Sequence record: SRR31156797_3965
Length of the DNA stretch: 42,739 nt
Strand: one strand, 5' to 3'
The notes below the pieces were generated by a model, which made no database searches, was not told where the DNA came from, and worked only from the letters and a program-made list of their open reading frames with translations. Positions 17,607-39,493 of the stretch are shown here, piece after piece; the first letter of the stretch is position 1; every line of letters starts with the position of its first letter. A program made the translations under genes and the position numbers.

Positions 17607-18308
17607 ATGCAAATGAAAAAATTACTTTTAATTATTGCTGTTCTATTAGCAGCAAATATGGCGCATACACAAGTCTTTACAATATTTGGAAAAGACATAG
17701 GCTATCTTTATGTAGGACCAAAATTCGGTATGGGAACATCTTTTATTTCAAATTACACTCCAGATGGAATGGATACAAAACTATTCTTATCAGCTTCTGG
17801 TGGAATTGTTGGTAAATTTGGGATAACAGATAAGCTTGCAATTCAACCTGAGATAATTTTCTCAAGGAAAGGTGGAAAATCGTTTGAAGATAATCAAGAC
17901 TTTAACTATGAAGGGACTTATAAAACAATTGCAAATTATATTGGTATTCCAATCCTTGCAAAATTCTCATTTTTAAAGATAAAAGACTTAAAGATACACG
18001 CTTCAGGTGGATTTTACACAAGTGTAACAACAAAGCAAGAAAATAAATCTGAAATCGTATATCCTGATCAAACTTTTGATGATGATCATGGTATTGAAAA
18101 AGAATTTTATAAAACAGTTGACTTCGGTTTAAGTGTTGGTGGAGGAGCAGAATATGATTTGGGTATTGGTTTACTTGTAGGAGAGTTATTAATAGACCAT
18201 GGATTTGTTGATAATTATGAAAACGATTTTAAAGAAAAAAGCAATAGGCACACATCTGTAACCGTTGCTTTTACTTTCTTATATGATTTGGCTGAATTAA
18301 TTAAATAA
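17607..18308 (+). CDS. Outer-membrane beta-barrel protein (PorT/OMP_b-brl_2-like porin family)
   Basis: Signal peptide; GPKFG, AIQPEIIFSRKG, YIGIPIL and DFGLSVGGGAEY beta-strand motifs. Confidence 0.8.
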   Translation: MQMKKLLLIIAVLLAANMAHTQVFTIFGKDIGYLYVGPKFGMGTSFISNYTPDGMDTKLFLSASGGIVGKFGITDKLAIQPEIIFSRKGGKSFEDNQDFNYEGTYKTIANYIGIPILAKFSFLKIKDLKIHASGGFYTSVTTKQENKSEIVYPDQTFDDDHGIEKEFYKTVDFGLSVGGGAEYDLGIGLLVGELLIDHGFVDNYENDFKEKSNRHTSVTVAFTFLYDLAELIK

Positions 18309-18319
18309 AAATATAAAAC

Positions 18320-18358
18320 CTAAAAAGCCCCGCATAATTTTTATGCGGGGCTTTTTAG
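18320..18358. terminator. Bidirectional rho-independent terminator
   Basis: CTAAAAAGCCCCGCATAA-ttt-TTATGCGGGGCTTTTTAG perfect 18-bp inverted repeat between convergent genes. Confidence 0.9.
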
Positions 18359-18366
18359 TATTTTAA

Positions 18367-18999
18367 TTAACTGAGTTTTGCTCCTATTAGATGAATAAAC
18401 TCTTCACGAGTACTCATTTTTTCCAAAAACGCTCCTGTAAAAGCTGAAGTTGTAGTAACAGAACTTTGCTTTTGAATTCCTCTCATTTGCATACACATAT
18501 GCTGTGCTTCTATTACAACAGCAACCCCCAATGGGTTTAGCGCATTTTGAATAGAATCTCTGATTTGATTTGTTAAGCGCTCCTGAACTTGTAATCTTCT
18601 TGAAAAAACCTCCACTACTCTGGCAATTTTACTCAAACCTGTAATATAACCATCTGGAATATATGCCACATGTGCTTTACCAAAAAATGGCAGCATGTGG
18701 TGCTCACACATTGAATACAATTCAATATTCTTAACCAATACCATGTGACGATAATCTTCTTTAAACTTGGCTGAGTTCAAAATATCTTCTGGTGATTGAT
18801 GATATCCTTGCGTTAAAAATTGCATGGCTTTGGCAACTCTTAAAGGAGTTTGTACCAATCCTTCTCTATCCGGATCTTCACCTATTGCACCAAGCACCCC
18901 GTAATAATGTTCGGAAAGTTTTTCAGTTGCTTCATCATTAAACTGATCTATTCTGGTATAGCCATCGTCGACTTTTGAACCATTTGCTTTTACTTTCAT
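18367..18999 (-). CDS. folE: GTP cyclohydrolase I
   Basis: [50 protein letters not shown]. Confidence 0.97.
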
Positions 19000-19013
19000 A
19001 AGTCAAAAATTAA

Positions 19014-19427
19014 TTAATCTCCATAATACTCCACATAATTATTCTCTGTTTCAATCAATTTCACACAATGCAATGAAGCTCCCAATAGCTTTATATCGTG
19101 CTCAATTTGCTGCCAGAAAGCTTTAGCTAAATTCTCAGAAGAAATAATTTGACCTTCTAAGAAATCTACTTCCAAATTTAGGTTTTTATGGTCGACCTTT
19201 TCTGTTATCCGTTTTTTGATAATCTTACTCAAATCTTTCAAATTAATTACAAAACCAGTTTCACCATTAACCTTTCCTTTCACGGTTACAAAAATTTCAT
19301 AATTGTGGCCATGCCAGTTCGGGTTGGAGCATTTTCCAAATACCTCCATATTTTTATCATCAGACCAATCCTTGCGGAAAAGCCTGTGAGCAGCATTAAA
19401 ACGTTCTCTTCGGGTTACATAAACCAT
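19014..19427 (-). CDS. 6-pyruvoyl-tetrahydropterin synthase family (COG0720), PTPS-II-type motif
   Basis: FNAAHRL, GKCSNPNWHGHNY (C-x5-HGH), DHKNLN, SSENLA, ETENN. Confidence 0.9.
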   Translation of the reverse strand: MVYVTRRERFNAAHRLFRKDWSDDKNMEVFGKCSNPNWHGHNYEIFVTVKGKVNGETGFVINLKDLSKIIKKRITEKVDHKNLNLEVDFLEGQIISSENLAKAFWQQIEHDIKLLGASLHCVKLIETENNYVEYYGD

Positions 19428-24809: not shown

Positions 24810-25193
24810 TCAAATCTCTGCTTCACCAAGTGCCTTAGAAACAGTTCTACTTATTTTATCCAATAAATAAGGTTTGGTAATCAAATCATCAAACCCGGCA
24901 TTTTCAAAAGTTTCAAAAAAATCATCCGGATTATGCGCAGTCAACGCCACAATAGGCATTCTTGATTTTGGAGAATTCAATTTCTCACGAATATACTTCG
25001 TTGTTTCAATACCATTCATAACAGGCATTTCTATATCCATCAATATCAAATCTATTTGATCAGTCTCAACTCTTTCTATAGCTTCCTTTCCATTAGATGC
25101 TTGGGCATATTTATATCCTAACTTCTTGATTAATTCGGTAAGAAGCATCCTGTTAATGATAATATCATCTACAATAAGAATTTTATAATCCAT
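24810..25193 (-). CDS. Stand-alone response regulator receiver protein
   Basis: ILIVDD, LMDIEMPVMNG, ALTA, ITKPY; divergent from the che cluster. Confidence 0.92.
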   Translation of the reverse strand: MDYKILIVDDIIINRMLLTELIKKLGYKYAQASNGKEAIERVETDQIDLILMDIEMPVMNGIETTKYIREKLNSPKSRMPIVALTAHNPDDFFETFENAGFDDLITKPYLLDKISRTVSKALGEAEI

Positions 25194-25329: not shown

Positions 25330-27072
25330 ATGAAAAAATATAGTTCAAAAGAGATACAACAACTGATAAACGAAATTGTAAGCAGTTTTTCATCAATTGA
25401 TCAAAAAGTTCTAGAGCTAACACATGTAAGCAATGAAGATTTTTCTGCCTTGAATAACATCATGAAAGATCATCATAAAACAACACATGACATTGCTAAA
25501 AGTACTATTGAGCTAATAGATAGAATCCAAAAGCTAAAAAGCAACTCCACATTATTAAAACTTAGAAACACAATTGATTCTACTCAGGCTGCAACAAGTA
25601 AGGTAAAGCAAAACATTAGCGATTTTATAAGTGAAGCTAATCATCTGAATCAAGATTTCAAACATGTTTTTATTCCTATTTTAAACTTTAAGCAAAATAT
25701 TTCTACATTAAAGTTTCTATTGGCAAATTTAAAACTTAATCAAGGCTTAATTGGTAAAAAAGAACATACTGAAACCAAACAATTAATTGAGACTTTAACT
25801 GCTAGGATTGAGTTAATACAGGTTGAAATACCTGTAATAGCTAAAGATGTTGATTTACTCAAAGAAAACTACAATAACTCCATTGAAAAAGCTGATTTAG
25901 CAGCCAAACAAATTGAAGTAGACCTAGCTGATGATGTAACTTTCTTAAATAAATATATCGCAATCATTGAAAATGGTATTAAAAACTCAAATACCATAAA
26001 ATCAAAGGTTGAACAAAAAAATCAGGAAGGATTCCAAAACTTAAATCATATCATAACAAACCTGCAATACCATGATATTATCAGGCAAAAAATTGAACAC
26101 ATACAAGATACGCACAAAAGCATTCTAGAGGAATTAAATACAATCGAAAAAGAGGATGATATCATTCAAAAAGGATTAAAGTACCTGAAACAAATACCCG
26201 GAATTACTGAAATTCAAGCAGGGCAACTTATTCTAACAAATAAAGAATACCAAAGCGCCATTGATAATATTTCAAAAAAGCTTTTGGAAACATCGAAATC
26301 AATGGAAGAAGTCAACAATTTATCTTTCAGTATTTTTAATATTAAAAACAATAGTTTTTCAGCCAATTCAATTTCAGAAACTACACAAAAAATTAACACT
26401 AAAATTTCCGATTTCTCAATTAAAATCAATGATCTATTAGAAAGCAACAATGTACTTCAGAACTCAATTAAGCTACATGATCAGCATTATAAAAAGCTCG
26501 AACAAATTGAAAAAGATATTAGCGAAATAATCAATAAAATAAACAAACATTTAATAGAAGAAACTGATGTTAAAACTATATCAAATAAGCTCATTTCACT
26601 ACTAAATGATATTAATGAATCCAGGAGTAATATTGGGAAAATTATTAACTCTCATAAAAACAACCATCTCATTCAAATTATTTCAAACATTGAAAATGAG
26701 GTTAAAGCACTAGAGAATAGCCCAATAACCCCAGAAGAGACCGATTCATTTATAAATGAATTCAATAATATAAACGATAAAATAATCTACAACTGCCAAT
26801 CATTTAAATCATTTGACAATGATTTAAAAAACACACTCGGAAACATTAAATATTATGACTTTTACGAACATCAGGTAGAAGAAATAATCAACCAACTCAA
26901 TATTGTATACAAAAAAATGCTGCCTATTTCAGAAGAAGGTGGAGAACAGGGAGACCTTTTAAGTTCAATGAAAGAGGCATATACAATGCAATCGCAAAGA
27001 GATATTCATGAAAAATCCGACTTAAATGCGGAAAATCAGGATGAAGATGATGATAACCTTGAATTATTTTAA
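25330..27072 (+). CDS. Soluble coiled-coil chemosensory protein, degenerate MCP-like/CheZ-like
   Basis: 580 aa, predicted all-helical, no TM segment. LQYHDIIRQKIEH resembles the CheZ D-x3-Q site; C-terminus YTMQSQRDIH...DDDNLELF; first gene of the che cluster. Confidence 0.65.
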   Translation: MKKYSSKEIQQLINEIVSSFSSIDQKVLELTHVSNEDFSALNNIMKDHHKTTHDIAKSTIELIDRIQKLKSNSTLLKLRNTIDSTQAATSKVKQNISDFISEANHLNQDFKHVFIPILNFKQNISTLKFLLANLKLNQGLIGKKEHTETKQLIETLTARIELIQVEIPVIAKDVDLLKENYNNSIEKADLAAKQIEVDLADDVTFLNKYIAIIENGIKNSNTIKSKVEQKNQEGFQNLNHIITNLQYHDIIRQKIEHIQDTHKSILEELNTIEKEDDIIQKGLKYLKQIPGITEIQAGQLILTNKEYQSAIDNISKKLLETSKSMEEVNNLSFSIFNIKNNSFSANSISETTQKINTKISDFSIKINDLLESNNVLQNSIKLHDQHYKKLEQIEKDISEIINKINKHLIEETDVKTISNKLISLLNDINESRSNIGKIINSHKNNHLIQIISNIENEVKALENSPITPEETDSFINEFNNINDKIIYNCQSFKSFDNDLKNTLGNIKYYDFYEHQVEEIINQLNIVYKKMLPISEEGGEQGDLLSSMKEAYTMQSQRDIHEKSDLNAENQDEDDDNLELF

Positions 27073-27090
27073 TCTATAATTGATAATAAT

Positions 27091-27402
27091 ATGACCAAAC
27101 AAGCTGTAAATATCAGACGAACTAAAGAAAGCTTGAATATTACTGTTAATCAGACAATTTCCGTTCAAAATATTGACCTTATCTACAACAAGCTTAAAAC
27201 AACCAATTTTGATAGGGATAACATTGTTTTCATTCTACCCGATAATTATGATACGGACTTTGCATTTATTCAATTGTTAATTAGTTTTCAAAGGTCAAAA
27301 CTAACAGAAAGTCAAAAAATCACGTTAAAAGCCCCATTGAATGATGGCAAAAAAAACGTAATTTTAAATGAAATAAAAGAATTCCAATTTGCAACAATAT
27401 AA
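27091..27402 (+). CDS. STAS-like domain protein
   Basis: 103 aa; 'ISVQNIDLIYNKL...DTDFAFIQLLIS' resembles the STAS_2 proteins found next to cheY/cheA. Confidence 0.6.
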   Translation: MTKQAVNIRRTKESLNITVNQTISVQNIDLIYNKLKTTNFDRDNIVFILPDNYDTDFAFIQLLISFQRSKLTESQKITLKAPLNDGKKNVILNEIKEFQFATI

Positions 27403-27414
27403 AAACGACCAAAA

Positions 27415-27780
27415 ATGGGAAAAAAAATACTCATTGTCGATGACTCAGAAAGCATACGTGAAGTAGTAAGTTTCACGCTCGAAAATGCCGGACACGAAGT
27501 TCAAAAAGCTATTGACGGCGACGATGCACTTACTTACCTGGATGGTCAGCCATACGACCTGATTATTACAGACTTGCATATGCCAAATAAAAACGGGATT
27601 GAGCTCATCAGAGAAGTTAGGAAACTAGAAGCGTATAAATTTATCCCCATTCTATTCCTGACCACTGAATCACAAACTGCCAAAAAGATAGAAGCAAAAG
27701 AAGCAGGTGCAACCGGTTGGATTGTTAAGCCATTTGTACCTGAAAAATTATTAGCTGCAGTAAATAAAGTAGTAAGATAA
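27415..27780 (+). CDS. cheY: Chemotaxis response regulator CheY
   Basis: ILIVDDS, IITDLHMP, FLTTES, AGATGWIVKPF; stop overlaps the cheA start (TAATG). Confidence 0.92.
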   Translation: MGKKILIVDDSESIREVVSFTLENAGHEVQKAIDGDDALTYLDGQPYDLIITDLHMPNKNGIELIREVRKLEAYKFIPILFLTTESQTAKKIEAKEAGATGWIVKPFVPEKLLAAVNKVVR

Positions 27781-29813
27781 TGGAAGCATTCAAACAAAAA
27801 TTTGTCGAAGAAGCCACGGAACAAATCAATGAGCTGGAACAGGCACTGGTTCAATTAGATCAGAACCAGGAAGACATGGCTACCATTGAATCAATCTTTC
27901 GGGTAATGCACTCTCTTAAGGGAGGAAGTGCCATGTTTGGATTCGAAAAAATAGACAAATTCACACATATTCTCGAAAATATTTACGATAGAATTCGAAA
28001 TAATGAACTTAAAGTATCAAAACAAATACTCGACCTTACATTTGAAGCAGTAGACCACTTGCGTAACTTGCTTGAGGAAACCAACGATAATGAAATGTTG
28101 CTCGAGGTTACCAATAAAAAGTTCATTGATAGAATTCAGGATGCCCTTGACGAAAAACAAGTTCCAGAGCATACGTCAATACAAGGTGAACCAGTTGAAG
28201 GCAAAACCAAAACATACTTCATCAGATTTGTTCCAAACGAAGATATAATGCAAAATGGAACAAATCCCATGTTCTTATTGGAAGACTTAGCTGAATTAGG
28301 TACCATCCTTATTAGTCCTGTTTTAAATAAAATTCCTGAATTTGATAAGCTGGACCCAACAAAAACTTACACAAGCTGGAACATTATTCTAAGCACCAAT
28401 GCAGGTATAAATTCTATTATTGACGTATTTATTTTCGTTGATGATGAAGCAAAAATTGAAACCCACAAAATATCTGACTTTAACCTATTGGCTGACAAAG
28501 CCATAAAAAATATTCTAAAAGATACATTATCTCAAAAACCCGACATCAAACCTACTGAGATACAAGAACTCATTATTGATCTTGAAGGAGTTTATCAAGA
28601 AAAAGAGAAAAAAGAATCGGGCACAGATATTCGCAAAAAAGCTGATCATAGCATTTCGAGTATTAGAGTAAGTTCAGACAAGTTAGATAATTTAATTAAC
28701 TGGGTAAGTGAACTTGTAACCATTCAGGCACAATTAACTTTATATGCCAAAGAGAATAGCTACGAAGGATTGAATCCTATTGCTGAAGAAATTGAAAAAA
28801 TATCGCGAAGGCTTAGAGATGATGTATTTAGCATTAGATTAATTCCTATTGCAAATATGGTAACTCGTTTCCAAAGATTAGTAAGAGAATTATCTAATGA
28901 CCTTGGAAAAGAAGTTGATTTTATAACTAAAGGAACTGAAACTGAATTGGATAAAAACATCATCGAAATGTTAGTAGATCCAGTGATGCATATTATCCGA
29001 AACAGTTTAGATCATGGTATAGAAACGCAAGAAGAACGTATCAAAAATGGAAAGTCGCCCAAAGGCGCTATCACCATGAATGCCTTTTATTCTGGAACAT
29101 TCGTTTACATTCAAATTATTGATGACGGAAAAGGCCTTGATGCGGAGGCTATTCGCCAAAAAGCAATTGAAAAGAACATCATAAGTTCAGATACTGAATT
29201 AACTGAAAATGAGATATACGATCTTGTATTTACATCAGGATTTAGCACAGCAAAAGCTGTTACAAATCTATCGGGTCGTGGTGTGGGTATGGATGTAGTA
29301 AAGCAAAAAATAGCTGAACTTAGAGGTGAAGTTGAAATCTCAAGTAAACTAGGAGTTGGAACTACTGTAACAATCAAACTGCCACTTACGCTATCAATTA
29401 TTGATGGATTACTCGTAAGAATTGAACGAACAAAATTCGTAATTCCACTTTCTGCAGTTCAAAAAATATATGAATTCACGCATAAAGAAATTGAAGATAC
29501 CATCAACAATCTATTTCTTGCAGATGAAGAAAGATATCCATTTATCTACTTAAGAGATGCGCTTAAAATTGAAGGGAAACCACCTGAAATTGAACGCATT
29601 GTAAATGTAGAATTCCAGGACTCTTACATGGGATTAACAGTAGATGAAATTATAGGTGAATACCAGGCTGTTTTAAAACCATTGGGTAACATGTTTAAAG
29701 ATGTCGACATTATATCTGGAGCAACCATACTTGGAGATGGTACAGTAGCATTGGTAATAGATCCAAACAGGTTAATAAACGAATTTACAAATAAAGAAAT
29801 TATTGGAGGATAA
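27780..29813 (+). CDS. cheA: Chemotaxis histidine kinase CheA
   Basis: Hpt FRVMHSLKGG; P2-like region; SIRVSSDKLDNLINWVSELV; HIIRNSLDHG; DDGKG; GFSTA; SGRGVGMDVV; LPLTLSII; CheW-like P5 (GATILGDG). Confidence 0.97.
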   Translation: MEAFKQKFVEEATEQINELEQALVQLDQNQEDMATIESIFRVMHSLKGGSAMFGFEKIDKFTHILENIYDRIRNNELKVSKQILDLTFEAVDHLRNLLEETNDNEMLLEVTNKKFIDRIQDALDEKQVPEHTSIQGEPVEGKTKTYFIRFVPNEDIMQNGTNPMFLLEDLAELGTILISPVLNKIPEFDKLDPTKTYTSWNIILSTNAGINSIIDVFIFVDDEAKIETHKISDFNLLADKAIKNILKDTLSQKPDIKPTEIQELIIDLEGVYQEKEKKESGTDIRKKADHSISSIRVSSDKLDNLINWVSELVTIQAQLTLYAKENSYEGLNPIAEEIEKISRRLRDDVFSIRLIPIANMVTRFQRLVRELSNDLGKEVDFITKGTETELDKNIIEMLVDPVMHIIRNSLDHGIETQEERIKNGKSPKGAITMNAFYSGTFVYIQIIDDGKGLDAEAIRQKAIEKNIISSDTELTENEIYDLVFTSGFSTAKAVTNLSGRGVGMDVVKQKIAELRGEVEISSKLGVGTTVTIKLPLTLSIIDGLLVRIERTKFVIPLSAVQKIYEFTHKEIEDTINNLFLADEERYPFIYLRDALKIEGKPPEIERIVNVEFQDSYMGLTVDEIIGEYQAVLKPLGNMFKDVDIISGATILGDGTVALVIDPNRLINEFTNKEIIGG

Positions 29814-29816
29814 CTT

Positions 29817-30347
29817 ATGGACGATAAACAAATAAATCAAGCTAATACAATGGAAACATTTCTCTCATTTAAATTGGGTAAAGAAGTATTTGCTGCTTCA
29901 GCAAATAACGTAGTCAATATTCTTGAGTTAAAACCCATTACAAAGGTACCACATGCTCCTGAATACATGAGCGGTGTAATCAATTTAAGAGGACAAGTAC
30001 TCCCTGTTATTGATATGCGAATTAAATTTGGCATGTCTCCCATTGAGCCAACAGTTGACACCTGTATAATTGTACTCAACCTAAACATTGATAATGAAGA
30101 GGTTAAACTTGGTATTTTGGTAGATGCCGTAAGTGAAGTACTAGAGCTGGAAGACAATCAAATTGAGCCTTCACCGACAATTGGAACAAAATATAAAGCT
30201 GAATTTATTAAAGGTATGTTTAAAAAAGATGAAAGCTTTATCATGTTGCTGAATATTGACCTTATATTCTCAAAGGACGAAATAGTTTTAGTTGAAGAAA
30301 CAAAGACAAAAGCAGATGTAGCCCCTGAGGAAGAAGAAGAGAAATAA
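29817..30347 (+). CDS. cheW: Chemotaxis coupling protein CheW
   Basis: ITKVPHAPEYMSGVINLRGQVLPVID, GILVDAVSEV. Confidence 0.96.
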   Translation: MDDKQINQANTMETFLSFKLGKEVFAASANNVVNILELKPITKVPHAPEYMSGVINLRGQVLPVIDMRIKFGMSPIEPTVDTCIIVLNLNIDNEEVKLGILVDAVSEVLELEDNQIEPSPTIGTKYKAEFIKGMFKKDESFIMLLNIDLIFSKDEIVLVEETKTKADVAPEEEEEK

Positions 30348-30441
30348 CAAATAGACCTGACCATACTGCTTCAACGAACCTATGATCATCAATTAATTCA
30401 TGATTAAATGTTTTTTGAAGCAGTTTTATTCTAAAGCAAAC

Positions 30442-31704
30442 ATGAAAAATAAACTAGTATTTGCATTAATTACCTTATTAGTTTTACAAATAACCATTAA
30501 AGCACAAGATAATAACAAATGGACCAATAAGCTCTATGGATTTATAAGAGCTGATGCATTTTATGATACCCGAAAAAGTGTTGAAGCAGTAGACGGCATG
30601 TTTCTGTTATATCCTGAGAATGCATTTTATGATTCAACCGGACAAGATATAAATAACATAAGCAGGTTAACTATGACAAGTATCTCAAGTAGATTAGGTC
30701 TAAATATCACAGGTAAAGAATTTCTCAATAAAAAAGCACAATTAAATGCTAAAGTTGAGGCTGATTTTACTGCCAGATCAAACTCAAACTCATTGAGATT
30801 AAGGCATGCATATGTTAGTGTAAATTTTGAAAAACATAAGTTCCTAATGGGTAGAACCTGGCATCCTATGTTTACACCAATGGCTTTTCCATTAACATTA
30901 AGTATAAATGTTGGAACCCCTTTCAATCCATTTAATCGAAGTCCACAGCTCAGATATACCTATACACCAAACGAAAAAATATCAGTTATTGCTGCGGCTC
31001 TCTATCAGAATGATTATAAAAATCTTGGCCCAGGCGACAATGGAGAAATATCAAAACAACTTGATTTAATGCGCAATAGCAAAGTTCCAAACATGCATTT
31101 GCAAGGTATATGGAAATTACAAAAACTAACATTTGGAATTTTTGGTGACTATAAAAAACTTCAGCCCAGAACCTACACAACAGGTGATGCGGGAATATTT
31201 AAAACATCAGAAACAATAGATAGCTATTCTGCCGGAATATTTACAAATTTCACATTCAATAAACTAAAAATTAAGGCTAAAAGCATTTATGGACAAAACC
31301 TTACTGACCAATTATTAACAGGTGGTTATGGCATTAAATCCCTTAATAATGAGACAGGTTACGAAACCTATACTACCTCCAATCATCTTTTTAATTGGAT
31401 AAATATAGAATATGGAAAACAATTGATGGGAGGCTTACTTTTAGGCTACAGTAAAAATTATGGGTTTAATCATAATCTTATAAATGACGCTCCTATATAT
31501 GCAAGAGGGGCCGATATTGATTATATTTATAGAGCATCAACCTATATTAAATGGTCAAAAAGTAGATTTGAACTATGGGCAGAAACTGAAGTGACTACTG
31601 CCGCCTATGGTGAAATTAGATACGATAGTAAAGGAAAGATTAGTAATACGAAGGAATTTACAAACATACGTTTTCAATTTTCATGTGTTTACCTTATTCT
31701 TTAA
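30442..31704 (+). CDS. Outer-membrane porin, DcaP-like beta-barrel
   Basis: Signal peptide from ATG 30442; YGFIRAD, SRLGL, VEADF, RLRHAY, GRTW and RSPQLRY motifs; aromatic-containing terminal beta-strand. Confidence 0.75.
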   Translation: MKNKLVFALITLLVLQITIKAQDNNKWTNKLYGFIRADAFYDTRKSVEAVDGMFLLYPENAFYDSTGQDINNISRLTMTSISSRLGLNITGKEFLNKKAQLNAKVEADFTARSNSNSLRLRHAYVSVNFEKHKFLMGRTWHPMFTPMAFPLTLSINVGTPFNPFNRSPQLRYTYTPNEKISVIAAALYQNDYKNLGPGDNGEISKQLDLMRNSKVPNMHLQGIWKLQKLTFGIFGDYKKLQPRTYTTGDAGIFKTSETIDSYSAGIFTNFTFNKLKIKAKSIYGQNLTDQLLTGGYGIKSLNNETGYETYTTSNHLFNWINIEYGKQLMGGLLLGYSKNYGFNHNLINDAPIYARGADIDYIYRASTYIKWSKSRFELWAETEVTTAAYGEIRYDSKGKISNTKEFTNIRFQFSCVYLIL

Positions 31705-31707
31705 AAA

Positions 31708-32553
31708 ATGGATAAACCTCTAGCATTTAATAATATAGAGCTCAAGCAGTCAGAATTTGACAAGCTTAGTAATTATATTTTTTCCAATTATGGAATTAAG
31801 ATGCCTCCTGCTAAAAAGATAATGCTTCAAAGTAGGTTACAGAAGCGATTACGTCACTTGAATATTAGCAATTTTCAAGACTATATAGAGTTCGTATTTA
31901 GCAAAGAAGGTGATCAGGAAATTATCCATATGATGGATGTTGTTTCCACCAACAAAACAGACTTTTTCCGAGAACCTACACATTTCGAATTCATGAATGA
32001 AGTTATTCTACCTGAAATTTATGAAAGAAACCAACGTGACGTTAAAATATGGAGTGCAGGAAGTTCAAGCGGTGAAGAAGCCTATACTATTGCTATGGTT
32101 ATAGAAGAATACATTGCTAAGCATGGTCATGTGAGTTATCAGATTTTAGGTGCTGATATTTCAACTGATGTATTACAAAAAGCTGTGAATGGAGTCTATA
32201 AATTTGAAAAAATAATCACCATTCCTGATTCATTAAAGAAAAAATACTTGCTTAAAAGCAAGGACCCCCAAAAAAAACTTGTTAGAGTAAAACCTAACTT
32301 AAGAACAAAGGTGAAATTCTTCCGTTTAAATTTAATGGATAACGTTTATAATGCTCCAAAAGATTTTGATATCATATTTTGTAGAAATACATTAATATAT
32401 TTTGAAAGAGAGACCCAGGAACAAGTAATAAACAAATTATGTAATCATCTTAAACCAGGAGGCTATTTTATTTTAGGTCATTCAGAATCGATTACGAATA
32501 TGGAAGTTCCTTTAGACAATGTGAAACCAACAATATTTAGAAAAACCTTTTAA
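31708..32553 (+). CDS. cheR: Chemotaxis protein-glutamate methyltransferase CheR
   Basis: TNKTDFFRE, IWSAG.SSGEEAY, ADIS, DIIFCRN.LIYF, GGYFILGHSES. Confidence 0.96.
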   Translation: MDKPLAFNNIELKQSEFDKLSNYIFSNYGIKMPPAKKIMLQSRLQKRLRHLNISNFQDYIEFVFSKEGDQEIIHMMDVVSTNKTDFFREPTHFEFMNEVILPEIYERNQRDVKIWSAGSSSGEEAYTIAMVIEEYIAKHGHVSYQILGADISTDVLQKAVNGVYKFEKIITIPDSLKKKYLLKSKDPQKKLVRVKPNLRTKVKFFRLNLMDNVYNAPKDFDIIFCRNTLIYFERETQEQVINKLCNHLKPGGYFILGHSESITNMEVPLDNVKPTIFRKTF

Positions 32554-32562
32554 CGAAACCAG

Positions 32563-32949
32563 ATGCTAACTAATGTACTAATTATTGACGACGATATTTT
32601 CCTTAGAGAATTAATCAAAGACATTCTCATTGATTACCCTGTTAATGTATTCGAAGCCGGAAATGGAGATCAAGGTTTAGATATATTAAAGCAAGAACCC
32701 ATTCATTTAGTAATTACTGATATTATTATGCCTGAAAAAGAGGGATTAGAAAGTATTATTGAAATTATTCAGAAGTATCCGGGCATTAAAATATTAGCTA
32801 TTAGCGGAGGAGGTTCAAGCGGTAGCCAGCAATATCTAGACATGGCAAGTAATTTAGGTGCCCATGCTACGCTTTCCAAACCTTTTGATAAAGAAGACCT
32901 ACTCGAAAAGCTAAATGAATTAGTAGACAACAGATTTACGCTAAACTGA
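32563..32949 (+). CDS. Stand-alone response regulator receiver protein
   Basis: VLIIDDD, ITDIIMPEKEG, AISGG, LSKPF. Confidence 0.92.
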   Translation: MLTNVLIIDDDIFLRELIKDILIDYPVNVFEAGNGDQGLDILKQEPIHLVITDIIMPEKEGLESIIEIIQKYPGIKILAISGGGSSGSQQYLDMASNLGAHATLSKPFDKEDLLEKLNELVDNRFTLN

Positions 32950-32988
32950 TTAATAATAAGTTATTAGTCAAACTTAAATGCTGCAATT

Positions 32989-33900
32989 ATGAACAAAAAA
33001 ATAACTGACGAAGAATTGTTGACCGAATTAAAAATTCGTTTTGAGCAAAATAAAAAAGCACTTTCTGAGCTTCAACAAAAATCAGAGCAGCTAAGAAAAG
33101 TAAATGAAAAACTTAAGGAAAGTGAGGCATTAAAAAGCCACTTCCTTTCTAATGTAACCAATGAAATCGTCAACCCATTTGCTTCAATACTTGGTCTTAG
33201 CCAAAGTATAACAAACCTGACAATTACCGAATATGAAAAAATAAAACCCCTAGCACAACTTATTCATGCAGAGGCATTTAATCTTGACTTTCAATTAAAA
33301 AATATCTTTGCTGCAGCAAAAATTGAAGCCGGACTCGCACAACCAGAACTTACAAATGTGAATATTAAATCACTTATTGAAAGCATTATTGAAAGCTATA
33401 GATATAAAGTCCAACAAAAAGAGCTAAAGATTAAATTCAACTATCAATGTCAAGGCAAAACAAAAGATGTCAATGAATTCCCTACTGATTCTGAGAAGCT
33501 AAAATTAATGATGTCCAATCTATTAAATAACAGTATTAAATACAGCAATGCTGCTCAAAAAATTGAAATATGCTCTGAGATTACAGATGATGATGAATTA
33601 AAAATTAAGGTTAAAGATTATGGTGTAGGAATCAAAATCGAAGATCAGAAAAAAATGTTTGATCGATTTGAAAAAGGAGAAAGCACCATACACTCTCTAA
33701 ACGAAGGATATGGATTAGGATTATCTGTCACTAAAGCATATGTTGAATCGCTTGAAGGAAAAATTACAATAGAAAGTGAACCACAAAAAGGAGCGCTTTT
33801 TACAATTTATATACCCAGACCAGACGGAACAAATTATTTAGAAGGTTTTTCAGACGACGGAAATGAAATATTCTTCGGAGATTCTGATGAAGAATTTTAA
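32989..33900 (+). CDS. Histidine kinase-like ATPase (HisKA + HATPase) lacking the canonical phospho-His
   Basis: H-box reads FLSNVTNEIVNP; N-box NLLNNSIKYS, G1 DYGVGI, F-box FDRF and G2 GYGLGLS are intact; no sensor domain. Confidence 0.88.
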   Translation: MNKKITDEELLTELKIRFEQNKKALSELQQKSEQLRKVNEKLKESEALKSHFLSNVTNEIVNPFASILGLSQSITNLTITEYEKIKPLAQLIHAEAFNLDFQLKNIFAAAKIEAGLAQPELTNVNIKSLIESIIESYRYKVQQKELKIKFNYQCQGKTKDVNEFPTDSEKLKLMMSNLLNNSIKYSNAAQKIEICSEITDDDELKIKVKDYGVGIKIEDQKKMFDRFEKGESTIHSLNEGYGLGLSVTKAYVESLEGKITIESEPQKGALFTIYIPRPDGTNYLEGFSDDGNEIFFGDSDEEF

Positions 33901-33902
33901 AC

Positions 33903-34376
33903 ATGGATAAAGAAATACCAATATACTATCTCTATCCTGCAAATCTATATGCACCTAAGGAACCTTACCTGATCAATACTTTATTAGGTTCATGTATTGC
34001 CATTTGCATGTATGACCCCATTACACAGATTGGAGGAATGAATCATTATATGCTTCCGCTATGGAATGGCGAAGGATTAGCATCGCCAAAATATGGTAAT
34101 ATCGCCATTGAGAAGTTACTGGAAAATGTGATCAAGAATGGAGCTAAAAAGTCTACAATAGTTGCGAAAGTATTCGGAGGAGGAGAAGTTATTGAATCAC
34201 AACATCACTATTTCAATATTGGACAACGTAATATTGAATTAGCCCATAAAATGTTAAAAGAATTAAACATCCCGATTAAAGGTGAAAGTATTGGAGGAAA
34301 ATTAGGACGAAAAATACAATTCGATACCTTTTCAGGGAGTGTGAAAATGAAATATATCAATAAGCAACAAACGTAA
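33903..34376 (+). CDS. cheD: Chemoreceptor glutamine deamidase CheD
   Basis: [39 protein letters not shown]. Confidence 0.95.
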
Positions 34377-34419
34377 AAATTTTATTATATTTAGTTTAAC
34401 ATTCAATACTGCATTTTTT

Positions 34420-35511
34420 ATGAAAAAACCAATACGCGTGCTTGTTGTAGATGACTCAGCAGTAGTTAGACAAACTTTAGCAGAAATATTAAATGCTGAT
34501 AAACAAATTGAAGTAATAGCAACAGCATCAGACCCTTATTATGCTGCAAAAAAAATACAGAAAGAGGTACCTGATGTCATTACACTCGATGTAGAAATGC
34601 CGCGAATGGATGGGCTTACATTTTTACGAAAAATAATGACTCAACATCCTATTCCAGTTGTTATTATTTCCTCACTAACAGCAAAGGGAACAGAAACTGC
34701 CATCAAAGCCCTTGAATATGGTGCCGTTGAAATCATCACAAAACCAAACATGAGCACCAAACAATTCTTTGAGGAATCAAGTATGCGTATTACTGATGCA
34801 GTAAAAGCAGCTGCCAGAGCAAAAGTTATCAGGAAAAAAGTCAGGAAAATAAAACCCGTACCTGCTGCAATGCAAAAAGTAGCACCTAAATTATCTGCTG
34901 ATGCTGTTATTCAGCAAAGTAGAAACAGAGCTATGGTTGAAACAACCGATATGGTTGTAGCGGTTGGGGCCTCCACTGGAGGAACTGAAGCCTTAAGGGA
35001 ATTCCTCATGGCCCTCCCCCCTGATAGTCCGGGAATTGTAATTGTACAGCATATGCCTGAGCATTTTACCCGTTCATTTGCAGAACGATTAAATGAATTA
35101 TGTCAAATTTCAGTCAAAGAAGCAGCAGAAAATGATACAATCATTCGTGGTAGAGCACTTATTGCTCCCGGAAATCACCATTTACTTGTAAAACGATCCG
35201 GTGCAAGATATTATGTTTCAATAAACAATGGTCCATTAGTTAACAGACATCGCCCTAGTGTTGATGTAATATTTAGGTCAACATCTCAATATGTTGGAAA
35301 AAATGCCATAGGAATACTGATGACAGGTATGGGTGATGATGGAGCTCAGGGTCTTCTGGAAATGAAAGAATCAGGAGCAATTACAATTGCCCAGGATGAA
35401 AAATCATGTGTAGTTTTTGGGATGCCTAAAGAAGCAATTGAAAGAGGAGCAGCCCAACATATATTGCCGCTCAATCAAATAGCTGGTTTCGTAAACAAAC
35501 ACAAAAGATAA
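34420..35511 (+). CDS. cheB: Chemotaxis response regulator protein-glutamate methylesterase CheB
   Basis: Receiver (VVDDS, TLDVEMP) plus GASTGG, QHMP, HRPSVD, TGMGDDG, VVFGMP. Confidence 0.97.
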
Positions 35512-35676
35512 TCACAAGAGATACTGATTCTTTCTCACCAACTATACAGGTCATTCAAAACTTTGAAATGATTGACAATTCTTTCACAAATCTTTTCCAA
35601 TGAGTTGCTGTAAATAACTCAAAAAATAATATATTTGATAATTGATAAACAACCATGTTCGCGAAAATGTAATCTC

Positions 35677-37947
35677 ATGGGGAAAAATAATAAACTCAGC
35701 ATCATTTTTTTATTTGCAGGAATTTTAACTGCTGCTCTATTCCACTTCTTTATAATCAAAGGGTTACTTAGTGGGCAAAACCTAAATTTTACGTGGAATA
35801 ATTTCATCAATTTACATGATAATCTTGCCCTTTATCTAATTGATAGTTTATGGATAGTATTTCCATTATTTGGATGGTTTACAGGCAAATATTTTGAGAA
35901 AAAGATAAACAAACTGGTTATTGAAATTAAAAATACAAATCAACAATACAGCAAGGTAAATGAAATTGCTACAAACCTTAGCGAAGGAAATGTTGATTTT
36001 GAAGAAGAGGAAAATAATGACAAGATAATCAGAAAACTACTTGGACTTCGGGATAGCCTCAAAAAACAAAAAGAGGAAGAAGAAATTAGGAAAAAAGAAG
36101 ATAATCAACGTCATTGGGTCGCTGAAGGGTTAGCCAAATTTGGCGACATTTTAAGGCAAAATAATGACGATGTTAATAAACTATCATTTGAAATCATCAG
36201 TAAGCTATGTAATTACACTGGCGCCGTACAAGGAGGATTTTACTTATTAGAAGACTCAGATCAAACAGATATACATTTTGAATTAACTGCTCATTTTGCT
36301 TACGACAGACAAAAGTATAATGAAAAAAGACTTGAATGGGGCGAAGGGTTAATTGGTAGATCAGCATTTGAACAAAAAACACTTTACATTGACGAGGTAC
36401 CTCAGGATTATGTAGATATAACATCTGGTTTAGGAGAAGCAAATCCAACAGTTTTACTTATTGTACCACTCAAATTTAACGAAGAAGTGCACGGAGTAAT
36501 AGAACTATCAAGCTTTGCGCATTTCGATCAGTACAAAATAGAATTTGTTGAAAAAATAGCAGAAAATATTGGTTCCACCATTAGTAATGTTAAAATTAAC
36601 ATTAAAACTGCTAAGCTTCTAAAAGATAGCCAGGAACAAGCTGAAAGGTTATCGCAACAAGAAGAAGAAATGAGGCAGAATATGGAAGAGTTGCAAGCTA
36701 CACAAGAAGAAGCAGCAAAACAATCGAAAGAGTTCATAAGCTTTACAAATTCAGTAAATCATACGCTTATTAGAGCTGAATATGATGTAAATGGAATTCT
36801 TCTTTACGCCAATTCTAAGTTCCTAAAATTGCTAGATTACGAGAATAACAGTGAAGTTGAAGGCCATCATATTTCAATGTTTATAAGTGAAAAAGATAAA
36901 GAATGGTTTAATGATATCTGGAGTGAGCTTTCAAGGGGCGGACATCACTTCGAAGGTTATATGAAACATGTAACCAAGAAAGGTAAAGACCTTTGGACAA
37001 TGGCAACCTATACTTGTGTTAGAAATGAAAGTGGTGGTGTAGAAAAAGTATTATTCCTGGCCATTGATACAACGGAGCACAAAAAACAATCAATGGATTT
37101 TGAAGGACAAATTAAAGCCCTCAATCTTGCAAACATTAAGGCCGAATATGCACCTTCAGGTAAATTTATCACATGTAATGAAAGATTTGTTGAAGCCGTA
37201 GGCTATAGCATGGATGAAGTAAAAGAGACAAGTATTTTTGATTTCTTTGCAGATGATGATCAAACAAATTTTGATGAGTTGTGGAATAATGTTGTAAACG
37301 GAACTCCATATCAAGGACAACTAAGTGTTGTGGTAAAAGATCAAAAAGTAAAATGGTTCCAAATGACATTCATGGCAGTAAATAACATGTACAATGAAGT
37401 AGATAAAATACTTGTTTTAGCTCTTGATATTACTGATCAAAAAGAACTACAACTAACAATTAGCGAACAAAATAGGACATTAAAACAACAAGAGGAAGAA
37501 CTCAAAAACTCCGAAATTGAGCTTCAAAAAAGATTAGATACCGCCAAAAAAGAACTCCGTCAACATTTTAAAGAAGTAGAAAAAAGTAAAATCCGAAATG
37601 AAAAAACACTTGAAGGAGCCCTTGATGCTATTCTAACTGCCGATCAGGATGGAAAAATAGAGTTTTTCAACAAAGCAGCTGAAGAGCTCTGGGGTTTTAG
37701 CAGAAAAGATGTTGTAGGTCAAAATGTTAAAATGCTATTCAATAAAGATATCATCAAAAATGATGAATTTGTTAATCGCTTTGTTTCACCCGATAAAGAA
37801 AAAATTGTAAGTGAACGCAGAGAGGTAAGTATAGCGACTAAATCTGGAGAAACAGTACAGGTTCTTATGCTATTATCAGATGCTACAGTGGATAAAATCC
37901 ATACATACACTGCATTTATCCAAAAAATTGAAGTTGAACTTTTCTAA
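35677..37947 (+). CDS. Membrane sensor: 2 TM, HAMP-like, GAF, Glu/Gln-rich coiled coil, three PAS domains; no kinase or MCP output domain
   Basis: Two hydrophobic helices; W..EGLAKF.DILR; GAF (GEGLIG, ITSGLGEA.P, GVIEL); QEEEMRQNMEELQATQEE; PAS/PAC repeats; ends at IEVELF. ATG at 35677. Confidence 0.85.
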   Translation: MGKNNKLSIIFLFAGILTAALFHFFIIKGLLSGQNLNFTWNNFINLHDNLALYLIDSLWIVFPLFGWFTGKYFEKKINKLVIEIKNTNQQYSKVNEIATNLSEGNVDFEEEENNDKIIRKLLGLRDSLKKQKEEEEIRKKEDNQRHWVAEGLAKFGDILRQNNDDVNKLSFEIISKLCNYTGAVQGGFYLLEDSDQTDIHFELTAHFAYDRQKYNEKRLEWGEGLIGRSAFEQKTLYIDEVPQDYVDITSGLGEANPTVLLIVPLKFNEEVHGVIELSSFAHFDQYKIEFVEKIAENIGSTISNVKINIKTAKLLKDSQEQAERLSQQEEEMRQNMEELQATQEEAAKQSKEFISFTNSVNHTLIRAEYDVNGILLYANSKFLKLLDYENNSEVEGHHISMFISEKDKEWFNDIWSELSRGGHHFEGYMKHVTKKGKDLWTMATYTCVRNESGGVEKVLFLAIDTTEHKKQSMDFEGQIKALNLANIKAEYAPSGKFITCNERFVEAVGYSMDEVKETSIFDFFADDDQTNFDELWNNVVNGTPYQGQLSVVVKDQKVKWFQMTFMAVNNMYNEVDKILVLALDITDQKELQLTISEQNRTLKQQEEELKNSEIELQKRLDTAKKELRQHFKEVEKSKIRNEKTLEGALDAILTADQDGKIEFFNKAAEELWGFSRKDVVGQNVKMLFNKDIIKNDEFVNRFVSPDKEKIVSERREVSIATKSGETVQVLMLLSDATVDKIHTYTAFIQKIEVELF

Positions 37948-37968
37948 AAAATATCCAACATAAATTTG

Positions 37969-38010
37969 AAATAAATCGGTGAATAATCATCGATTTATTT
38001 TTATTTATTT
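37969..38010 (+). terminator. Rho-independent terminator closing the chemosensory cluster
   Basis: AAATAAATCGGTGA-ataa-TCATCGATTTATTT followed by a T-rich run. Confidence 0.7.
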
Positions 38011-38050: not shown

Positions 38051-39493
38051 ATGCGAATCACTCTATTCATATTTAGCTTAATAGCAATTATATTTTCATC
38101 ATGTAAAGACGATGACATATTAACCAGTCCATCGGTAAAACTTAAGTTTTCTACTGATACGGTGATGTTCGATACTGTTTTCACGGGAATAGGCTCAGCA
38201 ACAAAAAGATTCAAAGTTTATAATACCTACAATCAACCCATTAAGATCAGCAGTATCAGAATGGCAAAAGGTAATACTTCAAACTACCATATGAATGTAG
38301 ATGGAATTTCCTCCAATGATGTTAGCAATTTAGAAATAGCTGAAAAAGATAGCATTTTTATCTTTGTCGAAGTGAATATCAATCCATCAGAAGATGACAT
38401 ATTAGAAGAAGATTCCATAGTATTTCAAACCAATGGCAATATTCAAGATGTAAATATGTTGGCTTTTGGACAAAATGTACATTTATTAAAAGATACTGTT
38501 TTGAGTACTTCTACATGGACACCAGACAAACCTTATCTTATTTATAGCCCTATTGCTGTCGACACTTTGGAAACACTTAATATACTACCTGGAACAAAAG
38601 TCTATTTTCATCAAGGGGCCAGCTTATTTGTATTAGGGTCTTTAAAAGCTAATGGAACACTGGCTGAACCTATTATTTTTCAGGGTGACCGCTTAGAGAC
38701 CTTTTACGAAGACAAACCCGGACAATGGGGTGCGTATACTTTTCTTGAAAATGGAGCCACATATGTTTTTGGAGGTATACATTTTTTCCCTGGAAGTTTT
38801 GAAAATGAGATAGATTACGCTATAATAAAAAATGCAAATAAAGGAATTCAATTAGATTCAGCTGTAGGAACCCAACCAACATTAAAAATATCCAATACGA
38901 CTATTTCGAATATGAATCTTGCAGGTATTTATGCGCAAACAAGTAGAGTAAATGGGCACAATATTGTTATAAATAACTGTGCTACCCATGCCATTGTACT
39001 GGCACTTGGAGGTACTTACAACTTTAATCAGGTTACTATTGCCAATTATACTCCCTATGCAATTCGTAATACTGCTTCAGTTGCACTCAATAACTACTAT
39101 GTCGCTGGCAATATTGCCTTTGCTTATGACTTAAATGAAGCAACCTTCACCAACTCAATTATCTATGGAGATGGTGGTGAAGATGGTAATGAAATAGTCC
39201 TTGATTATGCCGGAGAAGGTGCCTTTAATTATTTATTTGATCATTGTTTGGTTAGGCTTAGTGAAGACTTTAATACAAACGACGAAACCCATTTCAAAAA
39301 CCTAATAATCAGTCCTGAAGAAGGCCCAAGATTTATAAGCCGAGATGATTATAACTTTGAATTAGATACGCTCTCACCGGCAATTAATGCAGGTAAAATT
39401 GACTATGGATTATTACACCCAATTGATTTAAATGGCAATAACAGAACAATTGATGAAGCTCCTGATCTTGGAGCTTACGAAAGAAATAACTAA
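38051..39493 (+). CDS. Surface lipoprotein with Ig-like and right-handed beta-helix regions
   Basis: Lipobox FSSC followed by KDDD; FSTDTVMFDTVF; PGQWG; Asn-rich beta-helix repeats; C-terminal SPAINAG...DLNG..R...PDLGAYE (choice-of-anchor-Q-like). Confidence 0.75.
   Translation: MRITLFIFSLIAIIFSSCKDDDILTSPSVKLKFSTDTVMFDTVFTGIGSATKRFKVYNTYNQPIKISSIRMAKGNTSNYHMNVDGISSNDVSNLEIAEKDSIFIFVEVNINPSEDDILEEDSIVFQTNGNIQDVNMLAFGQNVHLLKDTVLSTSTWTPDKPYLIYSPIAVDTLETLNILPGTKVYFHQGASLFVLGSLKANGTLAEPIIFQGDRLETFYEDKPGQWGAYTFLENGATYVFGGIHFFPGSFENEIDYAIIKNANKGIQLDSAVGTQPTLKISNTTISNMNLAGIYAQTSRVNGHNIVINNCATHAIVLALGGTYNFNQVTIANYTPYAIRNTASVALNNYYVAGNIAFAYDLNEATFTNSIIYGDGGEDGNEIVLDYAGEGAFNYLFDHCLVRLSEDFNTNDETHFKNLIISPEEGPRFISRDDYNFELDTLSPAINAGKIDYGLLHPIDLNGNNRTIDEAPDLGAYERNN

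Follow-up and report, generated by a model that had tools for sequence, protein, structure and literature searches.

The window analyzed here is a stretch of 42,739 nucleotides from sequence record SRR31156797_3965. It contains an array of 12 open reading frames (ORFs), all on the + strand and spanning positions 25330-37947, that is one conserved chemosensory operon of a Salinivirgaceae-like Bacteroidales bacterium. The explanation that we favor, with a probability of roughly 0.55, is that this is an ordinary split chemotaxis (Che) operon whose methyl-accepting chemotaxis proteins (MCPs) act in trans and whose first product, a 580-residue protein designated cc580, is a new CheZ-like phosphatase of CheY. 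This reading is built on gene content, synteny, the MCPs of related genomes, motif conservation and the co-occurrence of cc580 with CheA. The genes of the array and the features at its two ends are as follows.

24810..25193 (-), recUp, a divergent single-domain receiver (Pfam Response_reg 1.4e-27)
25330..27072 (+), cc580, a 580-residue all-helical protein without a Pfam or NCBIfam match
27091..27402 (+), a 103-residue divergent STAS-like protein (STAS by positional orthology only)
27415..27780 (+), CheY (Response_reg 1.6e-28)
27780..29813 (+), CheA (Pfam Hpt, H-kinase_dim, HATPase_c and CheW; NCBIfam CheA 1e-121)
29817..30347 (+), CheW (Pfam CheW 6.7e-38)
30400..31704 (+), a 434-residue DcaP-like outer-membrane beta-barrel, or porin (Atlas language-model score 0.99)
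31708..32553 (+), CheR methyltransferase with CheR_N and CheR domains (Pfam CheR 8.7e-60)
32563..32949 (+), rec2, a second single-domain receiver (Response_reg 3.5e-22)
32989..33900 (+), hk303, a His-less HisKA/HATPase pseudokinase (weak Pfam HisKA plus HATPase_c)
33903..34376 (+), CheD deamidase (Pfam CheD 1.8e-27)
34420..35511 (+), CheB with receiver (REC) and CheB_methylest domains (Pfam; 6YMZ and 1A2O at about E 1e-108)
35635..37947 (+), a membrane-anchored sensor of one GAF and three PAS domains that lacks an output domain (Pfam)
37968..38001 (+), a terminator-like hairpin with a 15-bp stem and then a T-rich run (consensus match only)

The spacing within the array ranges from a 1-nt overlap to 52 bp, with 123 bp before the GAF/PAS gene. 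The core of CheA, CheW and CheY is complete: CheA has the Hpt, dimerization, ATPase and CheW-like domains, and CheY has all of the residues D9, D10, D53, T83 and K105 and a mean identity of 84% over 26 orthologues. CheB aligns over its full length with 6YMZ and 1A2O, and its GASTGG, QHMP and GMGxDG motifs and the receiver Asp are identical to theirs. CheD aligns over its full length with 2F9Z (E 2.9e-24) and retains the Cys and His motifs, and the best match of CheR is the Salmonella enzyme (1AF7/1BC5; E 1.6e-47), with a full-length alignment that is ungapped through the beta-subdomain and shows identical active-site motifs. The sequence-only reading that preceded this work had described a Bacteroidota chemosensory operon of 12 co-directional genes in which CheR, CheB and CheD look catalytically intact. 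The 12 + strand ORFs with their Pfam-supported core genes, and the identity of these motifs to those of the solved enzymes at residues that we take to be the catalytic ones, bear this out.

The window is AT-rich, with a GC content of about 33%. Homologues of cc580 are found in Salinivirgaceae, in Tenuifilaceae and in many unnamed Bacteroidales metagenome-assembled genomes (MAGs); one belongs to Salinivirga cyanobacteriivorans, which is available in culture. In the closest locus (L001, from a Salinivirgaceae MAG) all 12 genes, the porin gene among them, stand in the order seen in the window and are accompanied by the divergent upstream receiver, and the cc580 of this locus is 72% identical to that of the window. 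The order that recurs among 80 related loci is recUp (on the opposite strand), cc580, STAS, cheY, cheA, cheW, a variable slot, cheR, sometimes rec2, hk303, cheD, cheB and GAF/PAS. The recUp gene is directly upstream of the cc580 gene and divergent from it in 41 of these loci, and wherever a locus has both cheR and cheD (30 loci) hk303 is placed between them. Among the 80 loci, rec2 is restricted to those of Salinivirgaceae type, and the porin gene is found between cheW and cheR only in L001, L003 and L005. A second cluster type is seen in L012 (12230-19463) and, in similar form, in L015, L016, L018, L019, L024, L030, L054 and L058. In this type cheY occurs as a tandem pair, together with an unannotated 269-residue ORF between cheA and cheW; cheR, hk303, cheD and cheB are absent from the position after cheW and are replaced by an MCP (4HB, CZB and HAMP domains) and a large REC-PAS hybrid kinase. 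In L029 an ORF of 360 residues without a Pfam family (18138-19220) is inserted between cheD and cheB.

The cluster itself encodes no recognizable chemoreceptor. None of its 12 proteins matches MCPsignal in Pfam at E <= 0.01, the 580-, 103- and 434-residue proteins have no such match at E <= 10, and no MCP gene was found with Pfam in the 42.7-kb window. Sister clusters do carry MCPs. Among the 29 loci with both cheW and cheR, the slot between these genes holds MCPs in 8, the porin in 3, a gap of <400 bp in 16 and something else in 2. The MCPs in this slot are products of 680-875 residues with a Cache or 4HB sensor, a HAMP domain and a full MCPsignal domain, and an MCP is present somewhere in the locus in 23 of the 80 related loci. 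Genome-wide counts were made in five relatives, namely the genomes (MAGs of other species, completeness not given) behind five of the related loci, the nearest porin-cluster relative included. In all five, MCPsignal passes the curated cut-off (14, 7, 6, 16 and 9 matches), and the nearest relative, with an identical MCP-less porin cluster, accounts for the 14. The C-terminal pentapeptide xZxxZ (Z = F, W or Y), described in the excerpted text of PMC7390727 as a tether for CheR and CheB that is abundant in Bacteroidetes, is found on 10 of the 11 in-cluster MCPs and on about half of the trans MCPs inspected, as a linker followed by a sequence such as EFEKF or DFENF.

Because sister clusters carry MCPs in the cheW-cheR slot and the genomes of all five relatives hold them, the receptors of this pathway are most likely canonical MCPs encoded elsewhere and acting in trans. 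The MCPs of the relatives, their pentapeptides and the CheR, which is of the type of the Salmonella enzyme solved with that pentapeptide, indicate that the Che system is built for canonical MCPs. The sequence-only reading was right that the cluster lacks an MCP gene; it had gone on to propose a system with no canonical chemoreceptor, which the MCPs of the sister clusters and the 6-16 MCPsignal matches per relative contradict. Its suggestion that non-MCP proteins are the methylation substrates is likewise not supported, given the canonical MCPs in the porin slot of sister clusters, the pentapeptides and the type of CheR, and the evidence from relatives favors the alternative that it also offered, MCPs acting in trans. 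The genome of the closest relative has a second CheA gene (G001:C106:13929-16688) with an MCP gene about 2 kb downstream, and these organisms may therefore run two Che systems that could share receptors.

The protein cc580 is a member of an undescribed family. Its homologues have 570-620 residues and form 242 clusters (50% identity) at E <= 1e-10, with a full-length span in all of the matches listed, and the databases name them only as 'hypothetical' or with automatic coiled-coil labels. Among 201 genomes sampled from the order, cc580 is present in 46 and CheA in 73; every one of the 46 also has CheA, and cc580 is missing from all 128 genomes of the sample that lack CheA. Because it occurs together with cheA in 60 of the 80 loci and is confined to CheA-positive genomes, cc580 belongs to the Che system. 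In an AlphaFold2 model it is all-helical, with helices of up to 100 residues, a mean predicted local distance difference test score (pLDDT) of 80.4 and a predicted template modeling score of 0.62. In some rumen and gut Bacteroidales MAGs the cc580 gene is detached from the Che operon (L047 3890-7256; L064 2139-11818; L077 6205-11803) and has a conserved neighborhood of genes for an orphan CheW, ApbE, a GT2 glycosyltransferase and a DUF4199 protein; the rumen MAGs with detached cc580 have two CheA genes and 14-25 MCPsignal matches per genome.

Conservation in the family is concentrated in separate blocks: D37, F38, N42 and K46; N119 to N133; residues 242-257; Q296 to I314, which includes NKEYQxAI; the YY pair at 508-509; and YTM at 551-553. 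Outside these blocks the sequence is helical and variable. The block at 242-257 reads ITNLQ[Y/F][H/Q]DII[R/K]QK[I/M]EH, and residues 242-253 of the window protein are ITNLQYHDIIRQ. Its central motif, [Y/F][H/Q]DII[R/K]Q, is present in 80/80 loci, and D249 and Q253 are invariant in an alignment of 37 sequences. The residue before D249 is H in 73 of the 80 loci and Q in the other 7, and Q is also found at position 248 in one further database sequence (alignment A1). In its excerpted text PMC7750401 gives aromatic-Q-DxxxQ as the conserved active-site region of CheZ, and PMC3510030, likewise in excerpt, gives H-DxxxQ as the H-box of the HisKA_3 family, with the D and Q carrying the phosphatase activity of NarX. 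Within the cc580 family H-DxxxQ, as in HisKA_3, and F/Y-Q-DxxxQ, as in CheZ, are both seen, and this alternation argues against an essential phospho-histidine and for a putative shared role of DxxxQ in positioning water. At the C terminus an acidic, gap-rich linker, disordered in the model (pLDDT <50), is followed by E-[L/F]-F in all 77 complete orthologues; the window protein ends in NLELF.

Two apparent leads to MCPs in the cc580 sequence were rejected. A full-length profile compared with the PDB placed a Thermotoga MCP first (E 5e-9); this was judged to reflect composition and not homology because the match stands among designed coiled coils and is out of register with the hairpin tip. MCP methylation sites have the consensus E-E-x-x-A-S/T, and the NKEYQxA sequence of cc580, considered as such a site, was rejected by eye as a misfit. 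The profile of the motif region, when compared with longer proteins, had only members of the cc580 family among its top 120 matches and revealed no fused architectures.

The motif and the tail of cc580 are both predicted to bind at the active site of CheY. A model of the complex of cc580 with the operon CheY, from a predictor that received no alignment, gave an interaction prediction score from aligned errors (ipSAE) of 0.65 (0.64-0.65 in three runs), as compared with 0.00 for the best of three controls. In calibration this mark was reached by 51/78 solved complexes and by 2/108 mismatched pairs. The runs share at least 87% of contacts, and the pLDDT of the partner is at least 87. The predicted interface on cc580 (residues 38-39, 42, 46, 238-253, 552-553 and 576-580) brings together conserved blocks that are separate in the sequence and the tail, and that on CheY comprises residues 9-21, 55 and 83-86, which surround the phosphorylation site, as well as residues 99-119 of the beta5/alpha5 face. 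In the model, D249 of cc580 contacts residues 11, 13 and 14 of CheY. Conservation of at least 90% is found for 18 of the 24 predicted interface residues as compared with 36 of the 556 other residues of cc580 (Fisher p = 1.4e-15).

Matches to CheZ (PF04344), CheC and CheX were absent from the genomes of all five relatives in Pfam searches. CheD thus stands without CheC. Because of the DxxxQ motif, the predicted CheY interface and the lack of CheZ, CheC and CheX in relatives, the best reading of cc580 as modeled is that it is most likely a CheZ-like phosphatase of phosphorylated CheY (CheY-P). Alternatively, cc580 might bind CheY-P as an output protein or as a scaffold, or combine the scaffold and phosphatase roles.

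Two further products of the operon may act at the same point. In the H-box of hk303, N-E-x-x-N-P, the place of the phospho-accepting His is taken by Asn, both in the window and in each of 13 orthologues inspected of 31 aligned, as the description of a His-less kinase in the sequence-only reading implied; E (+1) and N (+4) persist, and so do the motifs for ATP binding. According to the excerpted PMC3510030, N at H+4 is the single residue needed for HisKA phosphatase activity, and hk303 keeps this residue while lacking the His. The GAF/PAS protein has two N-terminal hydrophobic segments, a GAF domain, three PAS domains and no output domain, and Pfam finds no MCPsignal hairpin domain in it. The tails of cc580, hk303 and the GAF/PAS protein resemble each other and the tethers of MCPs. 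That of hk303 has an acidic stretch and F in 29 of 30 orthologues (SDEEF in the window), and that of the GAF/PAS protein is IEVELF in the window and in 10 of 11 complete orthologues and ends in DLF in the other. In the window all three tails fail the xZxxZ rule, only the last residue being aromatic. Like cc580, hk303 and the GAF/PAS sensor may dock by their tails to the same receiver or receivers, and the tail may be the only means of signaling of the sensor. By analogy with the modeled cc580 complex, we hypothesize that all three tails would dock to CheY or to another receiver.

The five relatives were also searched for motility genes. None has a match to FlhA (FHIPEP), to flagellin (Flagellin_N) or to the type II secretion/type IV pilus ATPase (T2SSE), a search that matched 13 of 14 control genomes. 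GldM is found in all five, as is a full-length GldJ-like match that is above the curated cut-off in three and just below it in two, and the gliding/type IX secretion system (T9SS) apparatus of Bacteroidota is the sole recognizable motility apparatus in these genomes. The absence of flagellar and pilus-ATPase genes is provisional because the genomes are MAGs of unknown completeness. Since the relatives lack these genes and have gliding/T9SS genes, the output of the pathway is probably gliding motility or a non-motility function. The sequence-only reading had held that MCPs elsewhere together with flagellar genes would make this a standard split system: MCPs are present in all five relatives, but flagellar genes in none.

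The mechanism that we propose would then run as follows. Signal input would come from canonical MCPs encoded elsewhere in the genome of this organism, many of them with the pentapeptide, which would couple through CheW to CheA and be adapted in the usual way by CheR, CheB and CheD. CheA would phosphorylate CheY, and cc580 would bind CheY by placing its invariant [Y/F][H/Q]DxxxQ helix at the active site and by its acidic E-[L/F]-F C-terminal peptide, and would act as a CheZ-like phosphatase of CheY-P. The pseudokinase hk303 and the GAF/PAS sensor may dock to the same receiver or receivers, and the output would probably be gliding or a function other than motility. A bolder version, which we regard as speculative, is a Bacteroidales pathway for steering gliding in which CheY-P is handled by a giant CheZ analogue, a His-less HisKA pseudokinase with only the phosphatase residue left and an output-less membrane GAF/PAS sensor, all docking to CheY through a shared acidic E-x-F peptide. 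Redox, light or small-ligand input would then feed into the pathway by way of CheY lifetime, downstream of CheA and parallel to the MCP input, through three accessory proteins that are part of no described system.

Several points weigh against the phosphatase and in-trans explanation. The complex score is the confidence of the model itself and may reflect learned complexes of CheZ with CheY or of DHp (dimerization and histidine phosphotransfer) domains with receivers, and it does not single out one of the four receivers as the partner of cc580. Conserved residues 119-133, 289-314 and 508-509 of cc580 lie outside the predicted CheY interface, which leaves them unexplained, and these blocks may form a second binding surface. 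They correspond to 25684-25728, 26194-26271 and 26851-26856 of the window, and the NKEYQxAI and YY motifs within them are nearly invariant. Another candidate phosphatase in the system is hk303. A Pfam search at E <= 10 gave no match of cc580 to CheZ, the motif-region profile retrieved no solved CheZ and nothing else of significance from the PDB, and neither search showed profile similarity to any histidine kinase, so that by sequence cc580 is no member of the CheZ or kinase families. Fold searches of the cc580 model with Foldseek (best TM 0.24) and VIA-align (top Z 16.5, a designed four-helix bundle) returned only generic long helical bundles and are uninformative. There are hints of an array-associated role, in that cc580 in rumen MAGs adjoins an orphan CheW and not CheY and that an MCP-named cluster ranks second for cc580 in language-model features (0.95, 14/30 hits). 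GldM and GldJ indicate a capacity for T9SS and gliding and not Che control of it, and both the in-trans MCPs and the flagella-less state are read across from MAGs of other species.

The predicted binding of CheY would also serve if cc580 is the output of the pathway, a switch target that CheY-P binds as it binds FliM and whose helical bundle relays the signal to gliding/T9SS or another effector. The non-flagellated relatives have no other recognizable CheY target, the second conserved surface of cc580 could bind a downstream partner, and the protein is strictly confined to CheA-positive genomes. However, the invariant D and Q at the predicted active site of CheY suit catalysis and are not needed for binding alone, and no gliding gene is linked in the window or in the 80 loci, in a screen made for cluster genes in which gliding genes were not specifically sought. 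We give this role for cc580 some credence, at a tentative level. A phosphorelay or phosphate sink, in which H248 would accept phosphate in the manner of HisKA_3, either withdrawing it from CheY-P or handing it on to another receiver (recUp or rec2), appears quite improbable. On CheY, the predicted contacts fall on helix 1 and the beta5-alpha5 loop, where kinases meet receivers in solved complexes, and three extra receivers are encoded nearby. The H-DxxxQ of cc580 also matches the HisKA_3 H-box, as excerpted in PMC3510030, but H248 is replaced by Q in the 7 loci and the A1 sequence noted above whereas D and Q never change, and cc580 lacks both an ATPase domain and profile similarity to kinases.

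The hints of an array role bear on a different proposal, that cc580, and perhaps the GAF/PAS protein, is a highly divergent, soluble, receptor-like array component that binds CheW and CheA and is tethered to CheR and CheB by its C-terminal peptide; this corresponds to the non-MCP inputs or methylation substrates of the sequence-only reading. The MCP-named Atlas cluster has PF00015 in 38% of its members, the Thermotoga MCP heads the PDB profile search, among rumen MAG loci the orphan CheW is next to cc580 in L047 and L051 and within about 7 kb of it in L064 and L077, and the linker with its acidic, F-terminated C-terminal peptide is reminiscent of the tethers of MCPs. Yet there is no MCPsignal match in cc580 even at E <= 10, the PDB matches have the composition and register problems described above, the tails depart from xZxxZ, canonical MCPs are present in sister clusters and genomes, and the best-conserved motif of cc580 is predicted to bind CheY and not CheW, so that we consider the proposal unlikely. 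It is very improbable that the cluster of this organism works without MCPs, for example with the GAF/PAS sensor as its only input after loss of the MCP genes. The window has no MCP gene and the porin gene occupies the MCP slot, but the closest relative has the identical porin cluster and 14 MCPsignal matches, and intact CheR, CheB and CheD would be left without a substrate.

The remaining products of the array and its surroundings have less certain family assignments. The Pfam/NCBIfam scan of the 12 proteins left cc580 and the 103- and 434-residue proteins without a family, and at E <= 10 Pfam gave only chance-level matches for these three and for a 480-residue protein encoded after the array. 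The STAS assignment of the sequence-only reading holds by orthology, since 26 of 35 positional orthologues of the 103-residue protein match STAS in Pfam (best E 4.7e-8), but the window copy itself has no match; an ORF of 80-140 residues fills this slot in 58 loci. A conserved D-[L/I]-S-F-x-Q motif in these proteins has Ser in most orthologues, including L003 and L005, and Ala in the window, L001 and L004. In anti-sigma antagonists the Ser of this motif is the phosphorylation site; if it is so here, the window lineage has lost that site. Similarly, the label of porin finds support in the language-model likeness of the 434-residue protein to clusters of DcaP-type outer-membrane proteins but not in Pfam. 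The terminator proposed after the last gene is present as the 15-bp hairpin and T-rich run at 37968-38001, but it counts as a consensus match only because the number of terminator-like sites in the region is not above chance (6 as compared with 6.5 expected).

Directly 3' of this hairpin, at 38051-39493 (+), is the gene for the 480-residue protein, a lipoprotein with a signal peptide that ends in Cys, a choice-of-anchor Q domain at its C terminus and no Pfam family. It may belong to the operon unit because it is also found 3' of the GAF/PAS gene in six related loci (L014, L021, L022, L056, L059 and L069). Further signaling and surface genes in the window encode a fusion of a 7TMR-DISM receptor with a SpoIIE-type phosphatase (5558-8059, +), a T9SS-sorted surface protein with a Por_Secre_tail domain (9072-11459, -) and a PAS hybrid histidine kinase (12969-15320, +). 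As far as inspected, relatives show no linkage of these three genes to the Che cluster.

Che pathways are textbook systems; those of Bacteroidota are, to our knowledge, essentially unstudied. A literature search for a Bacteroidota Che system or a CheZ-like protein found no relevant paper and only a survey of MCPs with pentapeptides (PMC7390727, in excerpt). A Che pathway that has four conserved additional members and belongs to Bacteroidales without flagella is a variant undescribed in the literature searched. CheA is present in 73 of the 201 genomes sampled from the order, and some of its carriers are rumen MAGs in which MCPsignal matches number 14-25. The cc580 protein offers a testable handle on CheY-P turnover outside the CheZ, CheC and CheX families, and also on the question of which process a Che pathway governs in bacteria that glide. 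Should the shared tails prove to be CheY-docking peptides, they would represent a new way to feed signals into a Che pathway.

As compared with the split pathways of the E. coli Tar/Tsr type, the system has the same CheA, CheW, CheY, CheR, CheB and CheD, relatives with MCPs that carry xZxxZ after a flexible linker, and a CheR with a Salmonella-like beta-subdomain. It differs in that the relatives have no flagellar genes, this copy of the operon has no MCP genes, there are extra conserved members (cc580, STAS, hk303 and the GAF/PAS sensor) and the tails are pentapeptide-like but non-canonical. With HisKA_3 DHp domains of the NarX type cc580 shares H-D-x-x-x-Q on a long helix (PMC3510030, in excerpt) and predicted contacts to CheY helix 1 and the beta5-alpha5 loop; unlike them, it lacks a catalytic ATPase domain and matches nothing in Pfam, and its His is dispensable in 7 of 80 loci. 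From the CheZ of Proteobacteria (PF04344) cc580 is set apart by the absence of detectable sequence or profile similarity, by its length of 580 residues as compared with about 214 for E. coli CheZ (PMC7750401, in excerpt), by a bundle that is modeled as intramolecular and not as a dimer of hairpins, by H in place of Q, in most cases, before the Asp, and by a Bacteroidota host without flagella. The two proteins nevertheless have in common a helical bundle, the aromatic-[Q/H]-DxxxQ motif, a flexible linker and a C-terminal peptide (for CheZ, as excerpted in PMC7750401). In cc580 the motif and the peptide are both predicted to contact CheY, and its gene counts as next to cheY, with the 103-residue STAS-like ORF (27091..27402) between them.

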